From: Escherichia coli
Lineage (GTDB): Bacteria > Pseudomonadota > Gammaproteobacteria > Enterobacterales > Enterobacteriaceae
NCBI RefSeq assembly: GCF_003334335.1
Contig: NZ_QOWQ01000001.1
Length of the DNA: 64,000 nt
Direction: 5' to 3' (one strand)
Every line of letters starts with the position of its first letter. Positions within the stretch are counted from its first letter, which is position 1. Position numbers and translations under genes: made by a program. The notes under the pieces were generated by a model. The model did not search any database and was not told where the DNA came from. It saw only the letters and a list, made by a program, of their open reading frames with translations. Positions 47,271 through 58,410 of the stretch are shown here, in pieces.

Positions 47271-48119
47271 TTATTGCCGAACCAGTCTTGTGGTCGATGG
47301 GACAAAATCGCTATTACTGCGCCACGGGTTAATGTCCAGACCGCCACGACGGGTATAACGTGCGTAAACGCTCAATTTTTCTGGCTGGCAGAAGCGTAAC
47401 AGGTCATTAAAGATGCGTTCCACGCACTGTTCGTGGAACTCGTTGTGATGACGGAATGAGACCAGGTAACGCAGCAGTTTTTCTCTGTCAATTTGGCGTC
47501 CACGATACTGAATTTGGAGCGAACCCCAATCTGGTTGATGGGTGATCAGGCAGTTTGATTTCAGCAGGTGGCTGACAAGCGTCTCTTCCACTACTTTTTC
47601 ACCACAGGTGGCATTCTCCAGATAGTCAGTAGTGAATTCATAGTTATCGATAGTGATATCCTGGTCATCAATGCAAGTGCCATTAAAATGACCTATCGGC
47701 TGGCCTTCCAGTTCATCAAGACGATATAACGCCACGCTAATCTTACCCTGAGCGCAAGTGCTTAAGTCGCGCTCCAGCGTCTGGCGCACCTCATCCCAGT
47801 TATTAAAACGCGTCTGGTTAAAACTGTTGAGATAGAGCTTAAAACTCTTCGACTCAATCAGATTTACGCTGGTGTAATCAAGTTCAACATGACCGACAGC
47901 GACCTGCGGCAAACCTTTCGCATTCAGCCAGGAAAGTTCATACAGCGTCCAGATATCCGTACCGTGAAAAGGCAGGTTATCCGCTTTCAGACCCAGCGGG
48001 TCGCGATTCAGGCTGCGTGGAACGCCTTGCAGTAGGCTGGCGTCATAGGTATCCCGGTAATCGGTTGATTTTCCAAGAGTCAGGCCCGCAAGTGCCTGAT
48101 GGTTTGCATAAGAAGACAT
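47271..48119 (-). CDS. queF: NADPH-dependent 7-cyano-7-deazaguanine reductase QueF
   Basis: 282-aa ORF divergent from syd. Confidence 0.9.
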
Positions 48120-48186
48120 GTTTCACCGTCATAAACCAGATAAACTAAACGACAAGTGTATCTGGTTTAAGTGAAGAGAGAAATTA

Positions 48187-48732
48187 GTGGACGATTTGAC
48201 CGCACAAGCCCTGAAAGATTTTACTGCACGCTACTGCGATGCGTGGCATGAAGAGCATAAAAGCTGGCCGTTAAGTGAGGAACTGTACGGTGTTCCTTCA
48301 CCGTGCATTATTTCAACTACCGAAGATGCCGTATACTGGCAACCCCAGCCGTTTACCGGGGAACAAAATGTAAACGCGGTTGAACGCGCTTTTGATATTG
48401 TGATACAACCCACAATTCATACCTTTTATACGACTCAGTTTGCCGGGGATATGCACGCGCAGTTTGGCGATATCAAACTGACATTGCTGCAAACCTGGAG
48501 TGAAGACGACTTCCGTCGGGTGCAGGAAAATCTGATTGGTCATCTGGTGACTCAGAAAAGGCTAAAACTGCCGCCCACACTATTTATCGCGACGCTGGAA
48601 GAAGAGTTAGAGGTCATCTCGGTGTGTAATCTCTCCGGTGAAGTGTGCAAAGAGACGCTGGGAACACGTAAACGGACGCATTTAGCCTCAAATCTTGCGG
48701 AATTCCTTAATCAACTTAAGCCTCTTCTGTAA
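48187..48732 (+). CDS. syd: SecY-interacting protein Syd
   Basis: 181-aa ORF with GTG start. Confidence 0.9.
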
Positions 48733-48942
48733 TCCAAATACCCCATCTGGTTGTGAGAGATCTCTTACAGACTCTGTAGGAGATCGCTAGGAAATAAGCG
48801 AATACTTAAAAAGATAAGAATCGTTATTTTCATTTAAAATCAAAATGTTGATTGTTAATTCTTAACTTTCATATGAAATTTTCCTTAAGGCATTGTCTGT
48901 AAGCGCCTTGTAAGACTTCGCGAAAAAGACGATTCTATCTTC

Positions 48943-49310
48943 GTCGACAGGGAGTCAGACAACGAAGTGAACATCAGGATGATGACACTTCTGCAGGACA
49001 CACCAGGATGGTGTTTCAGGGAAAGGCTTCTGGATGAAGCGAAGAGGATGACGCAGGACGCGTTAAAGGACACCTCCAGGATGGAGAATGAGAACCGGTC
49101 AGGATGATTCGGTGGGTCAGGAAGGCCAGGGACACTTCAGGATGAAGTATCACATCGGGGTGGTGTGAGCAGGAAGCAATAGTTCAGGATGAACGATTGG
49201 CCGCAAGGCCAGAGGAAAAGTTGTCAAGGATGAGCAGGGAGCAACAAAAGTAGCTGGAATGCTGCGAAACGAACCGGGAGCGCTGTGAATACAGTGCTCC
49301 CTTTTTTTAT
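48943..49310 (+). ncRNA. csrB: CsrB regulatory RNA (CsrA-sequestering)
   Basis: About 368 nt starting GTCGACAGGGAGTCAGAC; at least 8 AGGATG hexamers plus further GGA motifs; ends in a GGGAGCGC...GCTCCC hairpin with T7 run. Confidence 0.85.
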
Positions 49311-49353
49311 TCCTGCTATCCTTCGCGGCAGTTTTTCTTATTGAGGTTGCTTT

Positions 49354-49683
49354 ATGACCACTCATGACCGCGTTCGTCTCCAGTTGCAGGCGCTTGAAGC
49401 GTTACTGCGTGAACATCAGCACTGGCGAAACGATGAACCCCAGCCGCATCAATTTAATAGTACCCAACCGTTCTTTATGGACACCATGGAACCACTGGAG
49501 TGGTTGCAGTGGGTGCTGATCCCGCGAATGCACGATTTGTTAGATAACAAACAGCCGTTACCGGGCGCTTTTGCCGTTGCACCCTATTATGAAATGGCGC
49601 TGGCGACGGACCATCCGCAACGCGCGCTTATTCTGGCTGAGCTGGAAAAACTGGATGCTCTTTTTGCGGATGATGCGAGCTAA
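49354..49683 (+). CDS. yqcC: DUF446 protein YqcC
   Basis: 109-aa ORF; stop overlaps truC ATG (TAATG). Confidence 0.85.
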   Translation: MTTHDRVRLQLQALEALLREHQHWRNDEPQPHQFNSTQPFFMDTMEPLEWLQWVLIPRMHDLLDNKQPLPGAFAVAPYYEMALATDHPQRALILAELEKLDALFADDAS

Positions 49684-50465
49684 TGCTGGAAATACTCTAT
49701 CAGGATGAATGGCTGGTTGCGGTAAATAAACCCTCCGGCTGGCTGGTTCACCGCAGCTGGCTGGATCGCGACGAGAAAGTAGTGGTCATGCAAACCGTGC
49801 GTGACCAGATAGGCCAGCATGTTTTTACTGCTCATCGTCTGGACCGACCCACTTCTGGTGTGTTGTTGATGGGATTATCCAGCGAGGCCGGACGGCTGCT
49901 GGCACAACAGTTTGAACAGCACCAAATCCAGAAACGTTACCATGCGATTGTGCGCGGCTGGTTGATGGAAGAAGCGGTGCTGGATTATCCACTGGTGGAA
50001 GAACTGGACAAAATCGCTGATAAATTTGCCCGCGAAGATAAAGGCCCGCAGCCAGCAGTGACGCATTATCGCGGTCTGGCGACCGTAGAAATGCCGGTAG
50101 CGACCGGACGTTACCCGACCACGCGCTACGGCCTGGTGGAACTGGAGCCGAAAACCGGACGCAAACATCAGCTTCGCCGACATCTTGCCCATTTGCGTCA
50201 TCCGATTATTGGCGATAGCAAACATGGCGATTTACGCCAGAATCGCAGCGGTGCTGAGCATTTTGGCCTCCAGCGGTTAATGCTACATGCCAGTCAGTTG
50301 TCATTGACGCATCCTTTTACTGGCGAGCCGCTGACTATTCACGCGGGCCTGGACGACACCTGGATGCAGGCGTTATCACAATTTGGCTGGCGCGGTCTGC
50401 TTCCTGAAAATGAAAGGGTTGAGTTCAGTGCGCCATCGGGTCAGGATGGAGAGATAAGTTCCTAA
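49683..50465 (+). CDS. truC: tRNA pseudouridine(65) synthase TruC
   Basis: 260-aa RluA-family ORF. Confidence 0.9.
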
Positions 50466-50482
50466 TCCAGGGAGAAAACGGT

Positions 50483-50932
50483 ATGGCGGAAATTGGTATT
50501 TTTGTCGGCACCATGTACGGGAATTCACTGTTAGTGGCCGAAGAAGCGGAAGCGATTCTGACCGCGCAGGGCCACAAAGCAACGGTATTTGAAGATCCTG
50601 AATTAAGCGACTGGCTGCCCTATCAGGATAAGTATGTTCTGGTGGTTACGTCCACGACCGGGCAGGGCGACCTTCCTGATAGCATTGTGCCACTCTTTCA
50701 GGGAATCAAAGATAGTCTGGGCTTCCAGCCGAATCTGCGTTATGGCGTGATTGCGCTCGGCGACAGTAGTTATGTGAATTTCTGCAATGGCGGCAAACAG
50801 TTCGATGCCTTGTTGCAGGAACAGAGCGCTCAGCGGGTTGGCGAAATGCTGTTGATTGACGCCAGTGAGAACCCGGAACCGGAAACGGAATCAAATCCGT
50901 GGGTCGAACAGTGGGGCACGCTGTTGTCCTGA
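50483..50932 (+). CDS. yqcA: Flavodoxin-like protein YqcA
   Basis: 149-aa ORF with flavodoxin-type N-terminus. Confidence 0.9.
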
Positions 50933-51366
50933 TATGTTCAGCGAGCGGTAAATGTCGTTTTAGCGGTGCTGAATCGAATCTTTTCAGGCAAATGCCAGTA
51001 AAAACTGCTTCATAGCGCGGATTTTTACTGGCGTTTGCCTGGAGTCAAGCGATCCATTTCATACTCTTCTTTATTTCTTCGTTTTAACCCTTCCTTTCTT
51101 GTTCTTGTTTTCATTTCCGTGAAGTGGATTCCACCGTCCAGGGCTAATGCCAAAATCGGGCCTCATTGAACGCATTAATGTTGTGTTGTTGCACGGTGAG
51201 CCGCTATGGCGCGCTTTTTATACTGCTATTGCCAGATATAAACACGCGCCGTATTCGGCGAACGACCTATAAAAACGGCAAAAAACACCCTACGTCACCT
51301 CTGATTTCCTGGCGATGTCGCAGTCCAGAGTGAGCGTGGCTAACGCGAATTTTCAGGAGTGCAACA

Positions 51367-52719
51367 ATGAGTTCTTTAAGTCAGGCTGCGAGCAGTGTGG
51401 AAAAACGCACAAATGCTCGTTACTGGATAGTGGTGATGTTGTTTATCGTCACATCCTTCAACTACGGCGACCGCGCTACGCTCTCTATCGCCGGTTCGGA
51501 AATGGCCAAAGATATCGGCCTTGATCCCGTGGGAATGGGCTATGTGTTCTCTGCTTTCTCATGGGCTTATGTTATCGGGCAGATCCCTGGTGGCTGGTTG
51601 CTGGACCGTTTTGGTTCAAAACGCGTCTACTTCTGGTCGATCTTTATCTGGTCGATGTTTACCTTGCTGCAAGGCTTCGTCGATATCTTTAGTGGATTCG
51701 GCATTATCGTTGCCCTGTTTACGCTGCGCTTCCTGGTCGGGCTTGCTGAAGCGCCATCTTTCCCCGGCAACAGTCGCATTGTTGCGGCCTGGTTTCCGGC
51801 GCAGGAAAGGGGAACGGCGGTGTCGATTTTTAACTCCGCTCAATACTTCGCAACGGTGATCTTCGCGCCGATTATGGGCTGGCTGACGCATGAAGTGGGC
51901 TGGTCACACGTCTTCTTCTTTATGGGCGGTCTGGGGATTGTCATCAGCTTTATCTGGTTGAAAGTCATCCACGAGCCAAATCAACATCCGGGGGTAAATA
52001 AGAAAGAGCTGGAGTACATCGCCGCGGGTGGTGCGCTGATCAATATGGATCAGCAAAACACCAAAGTTAAAGTGCCGTTCAGCGTGAAGTGGGGGCAGAT
52101 CAAACAGCTGCTAGGGTCACGGATGATGATCGGCGTTTATATCGGTCAGTACTGTATCAACGCCCTGACTTACTTCTTTATTACCTGGTTCCCGGTTTAT
52201 CTGGTGCAGGCACGCGGGATGTCGATTCTGAAAGCGGGCTTTGTGGCTTCCGTTCCGGCGGTTTGCGGTTTTATCGGCGGTGTGCTGGGTGGGATTATTT
52301 CCGACTGGCTGATGCGCCGCACGGGATCGCTGAACATTGCGCGTAAAACACCGATCGTAATGGGCATGTTGCTGTCGATGGTGATGGTGTTCTGCAACTA
52401 CGTCAACGTTGAGTGGATGATCATCGGCTTTATGGCGCTGGCCTTCTTCGGTAAGGGCATCGGGGCGCTGGGTTGGGCAGTAATGGCAGATACCGCGCCA
52501 AAAGAGATCAGCGGTCTTTCCGGTGGCCTGTTCAACATGTTCGGTAACATTTCTGGCATCGTCACGCCAATCGCAATTGGTTATATCGTTGGCACGACTG
52601 GCTCGTTTAATGGGGCGCTGATTTATGTTGGTGTTCATGCCTTAATCGCGGTACTGAGCTACCTGGTGCTGGTGGGCGATATCAAGCGTATCGAGTTGAA
52701 ACCTGTTGCGGGGCAATAA
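51367..52719 (+). CDS. gudP: Glucarate/galactarate transporter GudP (MFS)
   Basis: 450-aa multi-pass ORF. Confidence 0.9.
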
Positions 52720-52720
52720 G

Positions 52721-54061
52721 ATGGCGACACAATCCAGTCCTGTTATTACTGATATGAAAGTCATTCCGGTGGCAGGGCATGACAGCATGTTGCTTAATAT
52801 TGGTGGGGCACATAACGCATATTTCACCCGCAATATTGTGGTACTCACCGATAACGCCGGGCATACCGGCATTGGTGAAGCGCCGGGCGGAGATGTGATT
52901 TATCAGACGCTTGTCGATGCTATTCCGATGGTTCTGGGCCAGGAAGTTGCGCGACTGAATAAAGTGGTCCAGCAGGTGCATAAAGGTAATCAGGCCGCCG
53001 ATTTTGATACCTTCGGTAAAGGTGCCTGGACCTTTGAATTACGCGTTAACGCCGTGGCGGCGCTGGAAGCCGCTTTGCTTGACCTGCTAGGTAAGGCGCT
53101 GAATGTTCCGGTCTGCGAACTGTTAGGGCCAGGCAAGCAACGCGAGGCTATTACCGTCCTCGGTTATCTGTTTTATATCGGTGATCGGACCAAAACCGAT
53201 CTTCCTTATGTGGAAAATACGCCGGGCAACCATGAGTGGTATCAGTTGCGGCATCAGAAAGCAATGAACAGCGAAGCCGTTGTGCGTCTGGCGGAAGCCT
53301 CACAGGATCGCTACGGCTTTAAAGATTTCAAACTTAAGGGCGGCGTGTTACCTGGCGAGCAAGAAATCGACACTGTTCGTGCATTGAAGAAACGCTTCCC
53401 GGATGCGCGGATTACCGTTGATCCCAACGGTGCATGGCTGCTTGATGAAGCCATTTCTTTATGCAAAGGGCTGAATGATGTTCTTACCTATGCCGAAGAT
53501 CCATGCGGCGCAGAACAGGGCTTCTCCGGACGTGAAGTGATGGCGGAATTTCGACGGGCGACCGGCTTGCCCGTCGCGACTAACATGATCGCCACCAACT
53601 GGCGCGAAATGGGTCATGCGGTGATGCTCAATGCGGTAGATATTCCACTTGCCGATCCGCACTTCTGGACGCTTTCCGGTGCAGTCCGTGTGGCGCAGCT
53701 TTGCGACGACTGGGGGCTGACCTGGGGCTGCCATTCTAATAACCATTTCGATATCTCTCTGGCGATGTTTACCCATGTGGGCGCGGCGGCACCGGGTAAT
53801 CCTACCGCTATCGATACCCACTGGATTTGGCAGGAGGGCGATTGTCGCCTGACCCAAAATCCGCTGGAGATTAAAAACGGAAAAATTGCCGTTCCTGATG
53901 CGCCCGGTCTGGGCGTGGAACTGGACTGGGAACAGGTACAAAAGGCACATGAGGCCTATAAACGTCTGCCTGGCGGTGCGCGTAACGACGCAGGTCCGAT
54001 GCAGTACCTGATCCCCGGCTGGACCTTTGACCGTAAACGTCCCGTTTTCGGCCGTCATTGA
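52721..54061 (+). CDS. gudX: Glucarate dehydratase-related protein GudX
   Basis: 446-aa enolase-superfamily protein from ATG 52721; tandem paralog of gudD. Confidence 0.9.
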
Positions 54062-54081
54062 TTCTGAAAAAGGACATAAAT

Positions 54082-55422
54082 ATGAGTTCTCAATTTACGA
54101 CGCCTGTTGTTACTGAAATGCAGGTTATCCCGGTGGCGGGTCATGACAGTATGCTGATGAATCTGAGTGGTGCACACGCACCGTTCTTTACGCGTAATAT
54201 TGTGATTATCAAAGATAATTCTGGTCACACTGGCGTAGGGGAAATTCCCGGCGGCGAGAAAATCCGTAAAACGCTGGAAGATGCGATTCCGCTGGTGGTA
54301 GGTAAAACGCTGGGTGAATACAAAAACGTTCTGACGCTGGTGCGTAATACTTTTGCCGATCGTGATGCTGGTGGGCGCGGTTTGCAGACATTTGACCTAC
54401 GTACCACTATTCATGTAGTTACCGGGATAGAAGCGGCAATGCTGGATCTGCTGGGGCAGCATCTGGGGGTAAACGTGGCATCGCTGCTGGGCGATGGTCA
54501 ACAGCGTAGCGAAGTCGAAATGCTCGGTTATCTGTTCTTCGTCGGTAATCGCAAAGCCACGCCGCTGCCGTATCAAAGCCAGCCGGATGACTCATGCGAC
54601 TGGTATCGCCTGCGTCATGAAGAAGCGATGACGCCGGATGCGGTGGTGCGCCTGGCGGAAGCGGCATATGAAAAATATGGCTTCAACGATTTCAAACTGA
54701 AGGGCGGTGTACTGGCCGGGGAAGAAGAGGCCGAGTCTATTGTGGCACTGGCGCAACGCTTCCCGCAGGCGCGTATTACGCTCGATCCTAACGGTGCCTG
54801 GTCGCTGAACGAAGCGATTAAAATCGGTAAATACCTGAAAGGTTCGCTGGCTTATGCAGAAGATCCGTGTGGTGCGGAGCAAGGTTTCTCCGGGCGTGAA
54901 GTGATGGCAGAGTTCCGTCGCGCGACAGGTCTACCGACTGCAACCAATATGATCGCCACCGACTGGCGGCAAATGGGCCATACGCTCTCCCTGCAATCCG
55001 TTGATATCCCGCTGGCGGATCCGCATTTCTGGACAATGCAAGGTTCGGTACGTGTGGCGCAAATGTGCCATGAATTTGGCCTGACCTGGGGTTCACACTC
55101 TAACAACCACTTCGATATTTCCCTGGCGATGTTTACCCATGTTGCCGCCGCTGCACCGGGTAAAATTACTGCTATTGATACGCACTGGATTTGGCAGGAA
55201 GGCAATCAGCGCCTGACCAAAGAACCGTTTGAGATCAAAGGCGGGCTGGTACAGGTGCCAGAAAAACCGGGGCTGGGTGTAGAAATCGATATGGATCAAG
55301 TGATGAAAGCCCATGAGCTGTATCAGAAACACGGGCTTGGCGCGCGTGACGATGCGATGGGAATGCAGTATCTGATTCCTGGCTGGACGTTCGATAACAA
55401 GCGCCCGTGCATGGTGCGTTAA
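54082..55422 (+). CDS. gudD: Glucarate dehydratase GudD
   Basis: 446-aa protein from ATG 54082; shares long identical blocks with GudX. Confidence 0.9.
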
Positions 55423-55545
55423 GACAGAAAACCAAAACCGGCTCTATCTGGAGCCGGTTTGAGACTGATGCTAAACGCAAAATAGCCTGTTGTGCTATGT
55501 ATCAGGTCTACATCATTTTTTAATTCATTGAATTTAATTGGTTTT

Positions 55546-55580
55546 GTAGGCCGGATAAGGCGTTAACGCCGCATCCGGCA
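55546..55580. repeat. REP element between convergent gudD and barA
   Basis: GTAGGCCGGATAAGGCGTTAACGCCGCATCCGGCA. Confidence 0.5.
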
Positions 55581-55653
55581 TAAACACAGGCACTTTGTCA
55601 CCAATCTGAAACCAGCGTCATAAAAAGCCGATTGCTACTCGACAAGACATCCA

Positions 55654-58410
55654 TTACCCGAGAATTTTGCTGGCTTCGCGCGCGACATTATCCATCTCGT
55701 CCAACAGTTCCAGCAGCTCCGGTTCCAAATCTTCTTCTTTAGTACCGCTACGTAGCTGTTGTTCGATCAGTTGGCAGAGATTCTTCATACGTGGCACACC
55801 GCTATAGCCGCAACTGCCATGCAGTTTATGAATCAAATCAACCAGGCCTTCCGGGTTTTCTCCAACCAGCTGTTCCTCAACTTTGTTGCGAACTTCAGGC
55901 AGGAAATCGAGTAACATTTGCAGCATATCGCGCGCTAAATCGGTTTTTCCTGCTGCCTGGCGTAGTGCCAGTTGCCAGTCGAGGGTCGCATTCGGGTTCA
56001 CCACAATTTCGTTGACTTCGGGCGTCACGACGCGAGAGGAAATACCGCTGCCAGGCTTGTAGCGCAACAACAAATTATGCAATCGCTCTTCTTCAATCGG
56101 TTTCGCCAGATAATCGCTCATCCCTGCGCCAAGCAGCTTCTCTTTTTGCCCGGCCATTGCATGCGCCGTTACCGCGATAACCGGCGTTTGTTGCTGATGC
56201 GGGAGTTGGTGGATGAGTTCGCAGGCCCGAATGCCATCCATGTCCGGCATTTGAATATCCATTAAGATCAAATCGAACGGCATCTGTTTCGCCCGTTCAA
56301 CCGCCTGATGCCCGCTATCGCAAAGTTCCACATGTTGCACCATATCTTCCAGCAATGCGCCGATAAGTTTCAGGTTAGCGGGGTTGTCATCAACCGCCAT
56401 GACTGTCATTGCCAGCTTACTTTCATCGGTTACAGGCAAAAGCGTGTTTTGTTTGTGATGACAAAATTCCGTCAGGGCAGGCAACAGGCGTGTAGGTGTT
56501 AATGGTTTCAGCAGACACGCGCCGATACCATCTTGCTTGAGTTTTTCAGCATTGACTTGTGCATGGCAAGGAAGTGCCAGCATCAGGAAATCGGTCATCG
56601 ATACCGCTTTCGCTAATCGCTCATGTTGCATTGTTAGCGGCTCGCGGAAGGTCACCGCGATGCCTAACAACATCATGTCGTAATGCGCGGGAGGCAGCGC
56701 GGAGAACGTTGGGCTATAAACCACTTCCAGCGGCGTTTCACTTAAAATATCCAGCGTGCATTGCGCTGCTGCGGAGTTTGGTTCGACATAGGCCAGGCGC
56801 TTACCTGCGAGGCACTGGGTGGATGGCCCTTCGATAATAATGTTCGGGTTCAGATCGAGATTAATGTGGAACCAGAAAGTTGAACCGCGATTCGGCTGGC
56901 TATGGAACGAAATATCGCCGCCCATTTCATTAACCAGTTTTTGTGTAATCACCAGCCCCAGCCCGGTGCCACCATGACGGCGGGAAATACTGGCATCAGC
57001 CTGTCGGAAGGCCTGGAATAAGCGCGATTGATCGCGTTCAGGAATACCAATGCCGGTATCCCGAATCTGCACTTCAATCTGCACTTTGGTATTACTCAGC
57101 GCACGTTTTTCTACCAGAATATCAATGTTGCCATTCTCGGTGAATTTAATTGCATTCCCCACCAGGTTAGTGATGATTTGCTGTAATCGCAGCGGGTCGC
57201 CGATCACGTTATCAGGCACGTCGCTTTTAATATTGAGCGTCAGTTCTAACCCTTTATCGTGAGAAGAATGTGCCAGCAGAGTAACGACTTCATCCAGCGT
57301 GCTGCGTAGTGGGAATGGAATACTTTCCAGAATCAGCTTACCTGCTTCCAGTTTCGAGAAGTCGAGAACATCATTAATAATTGCCAGCAAATTATTTGCC
57401 GAACGTTCAATCGTATTCAGGTGATCGCGCTGCGTTGGTGTTAATTCTGTTTTCAGCGTCAGGCGGGTAAAGCCAATAACACCATTCAGTGGTGTACGCA
57501 GCTCGTGTGACATATTTGCCAGAAACTCGGATTTAATACGCGCCGCTTCCTGGGCGCGCTTTTTCGCCAGATCTAACTCAACGTTCTGAATTTCCATCTG
57601 CTCCAGCGTTTCACGCAGATCGGACGTCGCCTGGTCGATATTGTGCTGCATCTCTTCGTGATAAGCAGCCAGCGACATTGCCATCGAGTTGATACCGTTT
57701 TTCAGCATATCCAGCTCGCCGAGCATAAATCCTTCCACCCGGCTGTCGAGTTGCCCGCGACGGATGCGGTCGACGGTATTCACCATGTTGCGAATCGGAC
57801 CGGTTACATCGCGCATTAAGCGCCAGCCAAAAATAAGCGCAATACCGATACAAAACAGCATCATCACGCTGGAAATAAAGATCTCTTTATATTGCTGCAA
57901 GCGAACCGATTTAAGATCCAGCTCCAGCGCAATATATCCCAACATATTTTGACTATTTTTGGCATCGCTACTGGGCGATTCGTCGGGGGAGTAACTCTCA
58001 GAAATAATCGGCGTGCGGAGGATCATAATATCGCCGTCACGAGTGACAGTGAGCTGGCGAGGAAACGGCACGTTGCTGCCGAGCTGCATTGATGAGGGAT
58101 CAAGATGAAAATTGGAGGTGACAAAGAGTCGGTTATTTTCATCATAAACCGAAATCGCGCGAACAATATCGGAATGGCGACGATGCAGTACGCTTATTAA
58201 CTGACCGATAGATTCGCGATTTTGCAGGCTCATGCCATATTCAGTAGAAACTGCAAGCGGCTCAATAATGCTGGCACCGGCATCTTCCAGTTGACGCTGC
58301 AAGTCGTTATAGCGATGCACGACGAAAAAGATACTCAGCAATAAACCAATAAGGACGGTCGGTGCCAGGATCAGAATCATCATGCGTGCGCGCAGGCTGT
58401 AGTTGGTCAT
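55654..58410 (-). CDS. barA: Hybrid sensor histidine kinase BarA
   Basis: 918-aa ORF with kinase, receiver and HPt regions. Confidence 0.95.

Follow-up and report, generated by a model that had tools for sequence, protein, structure and literature searches.

Two adjacent genes, gudX and gudD, lie in tandem in the 64,000-nucleotide stretch of Escherichia coli DNA analyzed here (hereafter, the window), and their products share long blocks of identical amino acids. The locus raises the question of when the two copies separated and what the second copy, GudX, is for. As a textbook case in the best-studied bacterium, it carries little weight for a genome scan; its residual interest lies in the purpose of GudX, which is a long-standing loose end. 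Taken as a whole, the explanation developed below appears highly probable: the window carries the K-12 gudPXD operon, in which GudX is an old paralog of GudD maintained by selection, the identical blocks are conserved blocks of the barrel, and GudX may have a role in a mixed tetramer.

Organization of the gudPXD locus

The first gene of the operon, gudP (51367..52719, plus strand; also named gudP in RefSeq), is a 450-aa ORF encoding an MFS glucarate/galactarate/glycerate transporter, the product of which scores 539 bits against the NCBIfam family TIGR00893 (cut-off 395). It is followed by gudX (52721..54061, plus strand; ATG start, 446 aa plus stop), which encodes the glucarate dehydratase-related protein GlucDRP, and by gudD (54082..55422, plus strand; ATG start, 446 aa plus stop), which encodes D-glucarate dehydratase. 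The stop codon of gudP and the ATG of gudX are 1 nt apart, and gudX and gudD are separated by a 20-nt spacer (54062..54081, plus strand) that contains a Shine-Dalgarno-like AAGGA motif approximately 8 nt upstream of the gudD ATG, a putative ribosome-binding site. The three genes thus show the transporter-X-D order on one strand, with spacers of 1 and 20 nt, that characterizes a gudPXD operon.

Across region 51000-55700 of the window, 4,701 bases align at 100% identity with E. coli K-12 MG1655 and with further derivatives of K-12. All 5,426 complete E. coli genomes searched contain a match, which in 5,409 of them extends over 80% or more of the query. For this K-12 sequence, RefSeq shows the same gene boundaries and the same names, and labels gudP as galactarate/glucarate/glycerate transporter, gudX as enolase C-terminal domain-like protein, and gudD as glucarate dehydratase; the convergent gene barA lies downstream of gudD. 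The first-pass annotation had reported a tandem of two 446-aa proteins at 52721-55422, located downstream of a transporter gene, and had called the architecture a known one. The coordinates proved exact and agree with the RefSeq boundaries, the transporter gene ends immediately before gudX, and the identity to MG1655 together with the matching RefSeq names confirms that the architecture is familiar. We identify the locus as the K-12 gudP-gudX-gudD operon, for which both the architecture and the two crystal structures are already known.

A G+C-rich hairpin is located between the convergent gudD and barA genes (55435..55460). The terminator scan flagged it on the minus strand, with a 10-bp stem including 6 GC pairs and a T-rich tail; its folding energy is -20.4 kcal/mol on the plus strand, where the stem is followed by TTT only, and -18.9 kcal/mol on the minus strand. 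This hairpin is probably a two-way terminator for gudD and barA. The Rfam search identified no RNA family within 51000-56000; over the interval 48000-56000, the sole Rfam match is CsrB at 48952-49311. The gud operon is induced by glucarate through the activator CdaR. The sigma-70 consensus scan revealed no convincing plus-strand promoter ahead of gudP, a result that is compatible with an activator-dependent promoter and proves nothing.

Functional assignment of GudD and GudX

The GudD protein matches the glucarate dehydratase structures 1EC7, 1EC8, 1EC9, 1ECQ, and 4GYP over its full length (1-446) with 1033.7 bits. Its score against TIGR03247, the NCBIfam equivalog family of glucarate dehydratases, is 898.7 bits and exceeds the cut-off of 828.7, placing GudD within the family; both results uphold the earlier assignment of GudD as the glucarate dehydratase. 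GudX scores 748.1 bits against the same family, below the cut-off, and should therefore not be classed among the true glucarate dehydratases, in agreement with its RefSeq name. Both GudX and GudD match the GlucD structures in PDB over the full length, and BLASTP aligned the two proteins with 282/448 identities (63%), 78% positives, 590 bits, and E = 0.0; these matches bear out the proposed enolase-superfamily paralogy. The N-terminal capping domain and the C-terminal barrel domain (PF02746 and PF13378) were found in the GudX cluster representatives P0006 and P0008 (98-99% identical). GlucD constitutes its own subgroup of the enolase superfamily in SFLD, where some members are termed 'uncharacterized' (PMC5368075, PMC7246345).

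In this pathway, GudP imports D-glucarate, and GudD, a Mg2+-dependent dehydratase of the enolase superfamily, converts D-glucarate or L-idarate to 5-dehydro-4-deoxy-D-glucarate. In the enzymology of Gerlt and Rayment, the C5 proton is abstracted in GudD by Lys207 or by the His339-Asp313 dyad, and the enediolate is stabilized on the metal. The glucarate dehydratase activity of GlucDRP is reportedly very low.

Conserved blocks and divergence of the two copies

Two identical blocks of 28 and 16 residues had been quoted in the first-pass annotation as an indication of the tandem duplication, and both are present in the two proteins exactly as written. The 28-aa block spans aa 257-284 of GudX (53489..53572, plus strand), where it contains Glu259 and Glu265 (corresponding to Glu260 and Glu266 of GudD), and aa 258-285 of GudD (54853..54936, plus strand). 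The 16-aa block spans aa 338-353 of GudX (53732..53779, plus strand), starting at His338, which is the counterpart of the general base His339 of GudD, and aa 339-354 of GudD (55096..55143, plus strand), which include His339 and Asn341. In addition, GudX and GudD share six further identical runs of 8-12 aa each. The identical peptide blocks are active-site barrel strands with metal ligands and acid/base residues, kept by purifying selection.

At the DNA level, the gudX and gudD copies of the 28-aa block have the same codon at 10 of 28 positions (nucleotide identity 0.77), and those of the 16-aa block at 10 of 16 positions. The overall nucleotide identity of the two genes is 64%, the third-position identity is 0.41, and the same codon is used at 139 of the 282 identical amino-acid columns. 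The Nei-Gojobori estimates are 0.30 for dN, 0.71 for pS, and about 2.2 for dS, with saturated synonymous sites. The saturated pS, the few shared codons, and the equal distance of GudX from its own and from distant GudDs (see the following section) all indicate that the duplication is ancient. Thus, the blocks do mark a pair of paralogs, as had been proposed, but as a sign of duplication they point to an old event, since the underlying codons differ.

Phylogenetic distribution of the X and D lineages

The family survey covered one genome per species (GTDB representatives) and used the two most conserved peptide patterns; the best 80 loci were kept, and the family members in these loci were classified by tblastn against GudX, GudD, and GudP. 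E. coli GudX shows about 62-66% identity to all GudD proteins, its own neighbor and those from Pseudomonas, Bradyrhizobium, and Paenibacillus alike; E. coli GudD is 73-77% identical to distant GudDs from Pseudomonas and Bradyrhizobium. On the neighbor-joining tree of 116 family sequences, which was midpoint-rooted without an outgroup, the X genes constitute one clade apart from all GudD. This separate clade and the equidistance of GudX from all GudDs suggest that the split is old; the placement of X as the sister group of all D may in part be due to a long, accelerated X branch on a midpoint-rooted tree. GudX is, by these distances and by the tree, an ancient GudD paralog and no recent copy.

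The gudD gene lies immediately downstream and on the same strand in 32 of the 36 X-clade genes including that of K-12 (31 of 35 related loci), and most of the X-D loci of related genomes have gudP directly upstream of X. Among the best 80 loci, the gudP-gudX-gudD order on one strand was found in Citrobacter, Enterobacter, Leclercia, Pantoea, Erwinia, and Brenneria, as well as in Dickeya, Pectobacterium, Serratia, Rahnella, Budvicia, and two Orbaceae genomes. In Pasteurellaceae, the genome of Cricetibacter has the gudX-gudD order without gudP directly upstream. The four X genes that have no adjacent gudD comprise a truncated locus, a hybrid of X and D, a gene close to which gudD lies inverted, and a Halomonas gene (L033) that is basal in the X clade and has no family member within 6 kb. 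GudD occurs without X in 45 of the best 80 loci; a single GudD-type gene is found in Pseudomonas, Bradyrhizobium, Variovorax, Cupriavidus, Paraburkholderia, Acinetobacter, Paenibacillus, Alicyclobacillus, and others.

Active site, clade-specific positions, and selective constraint

The numbers and roles of GlucD active-site residues used here are those reported in the Gerlt/Rayment work (the 1998 study by Hubbard and the 2000 study by Gulick). They include the presumed metal ligands Asp235, Glu260, and Asn289 of GudD, its Lys205-x-Lys207 motif, and the His339-Asp313 dyad. We checked 17 such positions (GudD numbering): His32, Thr103, Tyr150, Phe152, Lys205, Lys207, Asp235, Asn237, Glu260, Glu266, Asn289, Asp313, His339, Asn341, Asp366, His368, and Arg422. 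A comparison of active-site residues between the two copies had been suggested at the outset, and it gave a uniform answer: all 17 residues are identical in GudX and GudD, and none of them varies among the 36 X-clade or the 78 D-clade sequences. The GudX counterparts of the ligands and of the acid/base set are D234, E259, N288, K204, K206, H338, and D312, and both proteins carry the residues of the glucarate dehydratase subgroup.

Comparison of the 36 X-clade with the 78 D-clade sequences yielded 15 clade-diagnostic positions, 10 of which fall within the capping domain at the N terminus, in the immediate surroundings of Thr103. Nine of these are substitutions (D-to-X, GudD numbering), namely L28I, S29G, G78A, R88H, Q102W, D105E, I110V, H111N, and T114A, and the tenth is a Gly fixed in the X clade at an inserted position near residue 89. 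The remaining diagnostic substitutions are Q140K, D294N, S322A, S338C, and G418P, of which S338C adjoins the general base His339. The two clades also differ by two-residue indels near 89-90 and 108-109. GudX from the window has the X-clade residues Gly28, Trp103, Glu106, Asn110, Ala113, Asn293, Ala321, Cys337, and Pro417 (GudX numbering). In enolase-superfamily enzymes, specificity is determined by loops of the capping domain, which shut over the substrate. Judged by its residues, GudX looks like an enzyme with intact chemistry and an altered lid.

The dN/dS ratios calculated against the orthologs from Citrobacter, Enterobacter, Erwinia, Serratia, and Budvicia are 0.024-0.091 for gudX and 0.016-0.111 for gudD, and the alignments of 33 genomes with both genes contain 227 invariant columns in GudX and 221 in GudD. 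At the distances of Orbaceae and Pasteurellaceae, dN is 0.20-0.22 for GudX vs. 0.12-0.17 for GudD. By these estimates, GudX evolves slightly faster than GudD and is clearly maintained by selection, with a constraint as strong, at a dN/dS of about 0.03. The constraint on GudX, its retained catalytic residues, the fixed changes in its capping loops, and its adjacency to GudD argue against a 'junk copy'; the same comparative data point to the role of either a partner subunit or an enzyme with a distinct substrate.

Possible role of GudX

The role of GudX had been described as less clear than that of GudD. This description holds, but more is known than it implies, since structures exist for GudX alone (4IL0) and with GudD (4GYP); GudX is 100% identical, residue by residue, to 4IL0 and to chain C of 4GYP. 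The PDB entry 4GYP contains both the GudX and the GudD sequences. The GudX sequence (u63711) accounts for two chains, both in that entry only, and the GudD sequence (u4846) accounts for 18 chains over 1EC7, 1EC8, 1EC9, 1ECQ, and 4GYP. The 18 chains fit four in each of the four other entries, and hence two GudD chains are left for 4GYP. This chain arithmetic fits a 2+2 GudX/GudD assembly in the 4GYP crystal.

Based on this arrangement, we propose that GudX is co-translated with GudD and would then join a mixed 2+2 tetramer, in which it may serve as a low-activity or modulating partner rather than as a stand-alone dehydratase. The mixed tetramer appears to be the most economical reading of the 4GYP entry, the 1-nt gudP/gudX junction, the 20-nt spacer with AAGGA, and the near-obligate adjacency of X and D. 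We give about even chances to the suggestion that GudX assembles with GudD in this way, as in 4GYP, and acts as a low-activity or modulating subunit; its crystal basis is one entry, 4GYP. Two observations bear on this role from the other side. The invariant catalytic residues suit an active enzyme more than a GudX subunit of structural function only, and the lone Halomonas X gene counts against a partner-subunit role. Within the literature library searched, we found no paper that characterizes GudX or describes a role as partner subunit.

Alternative explanations

The adjacency of the two genes, their common strand and equal length, and identical runs of up to 28 residues are all features that a recent tandem duplication or ongoing gene conversion would leave, and in a few other genomes the exact nucleotide match within this block is longer (L018, 59 nt; L008, 49 nt), so that short gudX/gudD conversion tracts may be present there. 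In this window, however, the longest exact aligned nucleotide run between gudX and gudD is 20 nt, and the 28-aa block with its 10 shared codons out of 28, the third-position identity of 0.41, and the saturated pS of 0.71 all speak against such an origin, as does the observation that GudX is no nearer to its own GudD than to distant ones. On the basis of the codon comparison and the saturated synonymous divergence, we rejected the view that gene conversion or a recent duplication produced the blocks in this window, and we regard this origin as extremely improbable. The idea that GudX is instead a superfluous copy decaying into a pseudogene could draw on its score under the NCBIfam glucarate dehydratase cut-off, on its reportedly very low glucarate dehydratase activity, and on rare fused or deleted gudX alleles (P0007, P0002, and P0003). 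Against it stand an ORF that is intact in K-12, the coverage of 80% or more of the region by 5,409 of the 5,426 E. coli genomes, a gudX dN/dS of about 0.025-0.09 that equals that of gudD, invariant columns as numerous as in GudD, and catalytic residues that are all invariant across three orders of bacteria. Pseudogenization of gudX is ruled out by the dN/dS ratios and the invariant-column counts, and decay is a very improbable account of the gene.

A more serious alternative is that GudX acts independently of GudD, as an enzyme with a separate substrate, which might be another diacid or acid sugar, or with an epimerization activity, and that it resides in the operon for co-regulation, its presence in 4GYP being incidental. 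The invariance of the full acid/base and metal-binding set, the concentration of clade-specific changes in the capping-domain loops, the only slightly faster evolution of GudX relative to GudD, and the solitary position of the basal X-like gene in Halomonas would all fit such an enzyme. Conversely, Thr103, Arg422, His368, Asn237, and the other residues that we take to contact glucarate are unchanged in GudX, the X gene is almost always attached to gudD, GudX and GudD occur in one crystal entry, and the name given by the depositors is still just 'related protein'. The sole apparent phenotype does not help this alternative either. In Dickeya solani, gudP, gudD, gudX, and garL are fitness genes on galactarate according to Tn-seq (PMC10202176); the gene order is gudP-gudX-gudD-garL-garR-garK, with garD separate and divergent (PMC10202176, supplementary gene table). 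Insertions in gudX or gudD are expected to be polar on the downstream garL, and the Tn-seq signal is thus uninformative on GudX function; we therefore rejected the galactarate fitness effect as a GudX phenotype. We consider an independent GudX enzyme possible but unlikely.

Returning to the mixed tetramer, a stronger form of the proposal is that GudX is an obligatory, co-evolving partner of GudD and that the physiological glucarate dehydratase in Enterobacterales, Orbaceae, and Pasteurellaceae is a 2+2 assembly of the two proteins. We put this forward tentatively, as something that is doubtful at present. If it were true, the capping-loop changes (Q102W, D105E, H111N, T114A, and the indels) would endow the mixed enzyme with a property absent from the GudD homotetramer, for example an altered substrate range, regulation, or stability.

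Comparison with known systems

The gudD gene of the window encodes GudD of E. coli K-12 (GlucD; PDB 1EC7, 1EC8, 1EC9, 1ECQ, 1JCT, and 1JDF) without any difference, and its gudX gene likewise encodes K-12 GudX (GlucDRP; 4IL0, and 4GYP with GudD). The single-copy GlucD of Pseudomonas putida (PDB 1BQG) has the same fold and catalytic residues as GudD and GudX and resembles GudD (756 bits) more than GudX (654 bits). Unlike in E. coli, no X paralog adjoins the GudD gene in the sampled Pseudomonas, Bradyrhizobium, Variovorax, and Paenibacillus loci. The GlucD-related protein of Actinobacillus succinogenes (3N6H, 3N6J, and 3PFR) comes from another species and is more divergent than the enterobacterial GudX orthologs; it scores 788 bits against GudX and 624 bits against GudD, and thus appears to belong with the X lineage, in agreement with the X-D tandem at the Pasteurellaceae locus L026.

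Probable recombination between gudX and gudD

In Pantoea stewartii subsp. stewartii, the only gene of the GlucD family downstream of gudP is an intact X/D hybrid encoding 445 aa (NZ_VZPF01000011.1; positions 6001-7338 of family locus L025). Residues 1 to ~286 of the hybrid are X-type at 20/20 diagnostic sites, i.e., positions fixed differently between the GudX and GudD clades, and share 71-95% identity with GudX of Pantoea and E. coli, whereas the part from ~294 to the C-terminal end is D-type at 4/4 such sites and is up to 99% identical to GudD. The crossover point lies directly past the 28-aa block that is identical in GudX (aa 257-284) and GudD (aa 258-285), as expected for unequal recombination between tandem paralogs. 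Downstream of the hybrid are ORFs sized like garL, garR, and garK and a convergent barA gene.

Exact runs of 40-59 nt common to gudX and gudD of the same genome were identified at or near this block in four other loci (L018, L008, L023, and L028); in contrast, the longest such run in E. coli K-12 is shorter, at 20 nt. The longer runs hint that gudX and gudD of a few Enterobacterales besides E. coli occasionally undergo gene conversion over short tracts.

Several protein entries represent altered forms of the pair. The 583-aa entry P0007 from E. coli, present on 23 contigs, consists of GudX 1-229 fused out of register with GudD 93-446 and is an internal deletion allele of gudX-gudD. Frameshifts close to the gudX stop codon have produced gudX-gudD read-through fusions in entry P0002 (690 aa) and in entry P0003 (650 aa, from Salmonella). 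The internal repeats found in P0001 and P0010 look like assembly artefacts.

In L021, labelled Escherichia coli strain SCPM-O-B-8794, gudX and gudD alike have dS values of ~0.43-0.45 vs. K-12, well above what genomes of E. coli normally show among themselves; the strain, which serves as a species representative, probably belongs to a divergent lineage of Escherichia.

Other elements of the window

The CsrB small RNA gene (48952-49311, + strand; Rfam RF00018, 380 bits, full length) is located between syd (48187-48732) and yqcC (49354-49683). The gudD-barA spacer contains an imperfect palindrome, GCCGGATAAGGCGTTAACGCCGCATCCGGC (55549-55580), spotted by eye, which resembles an E. coli REP element and is considered a candidate for one.

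A second GlucD paralog clade

GlucD paralogs of a different, second clade are encoded in Lucifera butyrica (L051:4581-5951) and Stutzerimonas stutzeri (L079:1527-2903). Both have Glu at the position of Thr103 (GudD numbering), and their diagnostic residues are mainly D-type. The Lucifera genes are arranged in tandem, in the order gudP-like gene, second-clade paralog, and GudD; thus, a partner paralog adjoining GudD appears to have emerged, or to have been kept, on more than one occasion.
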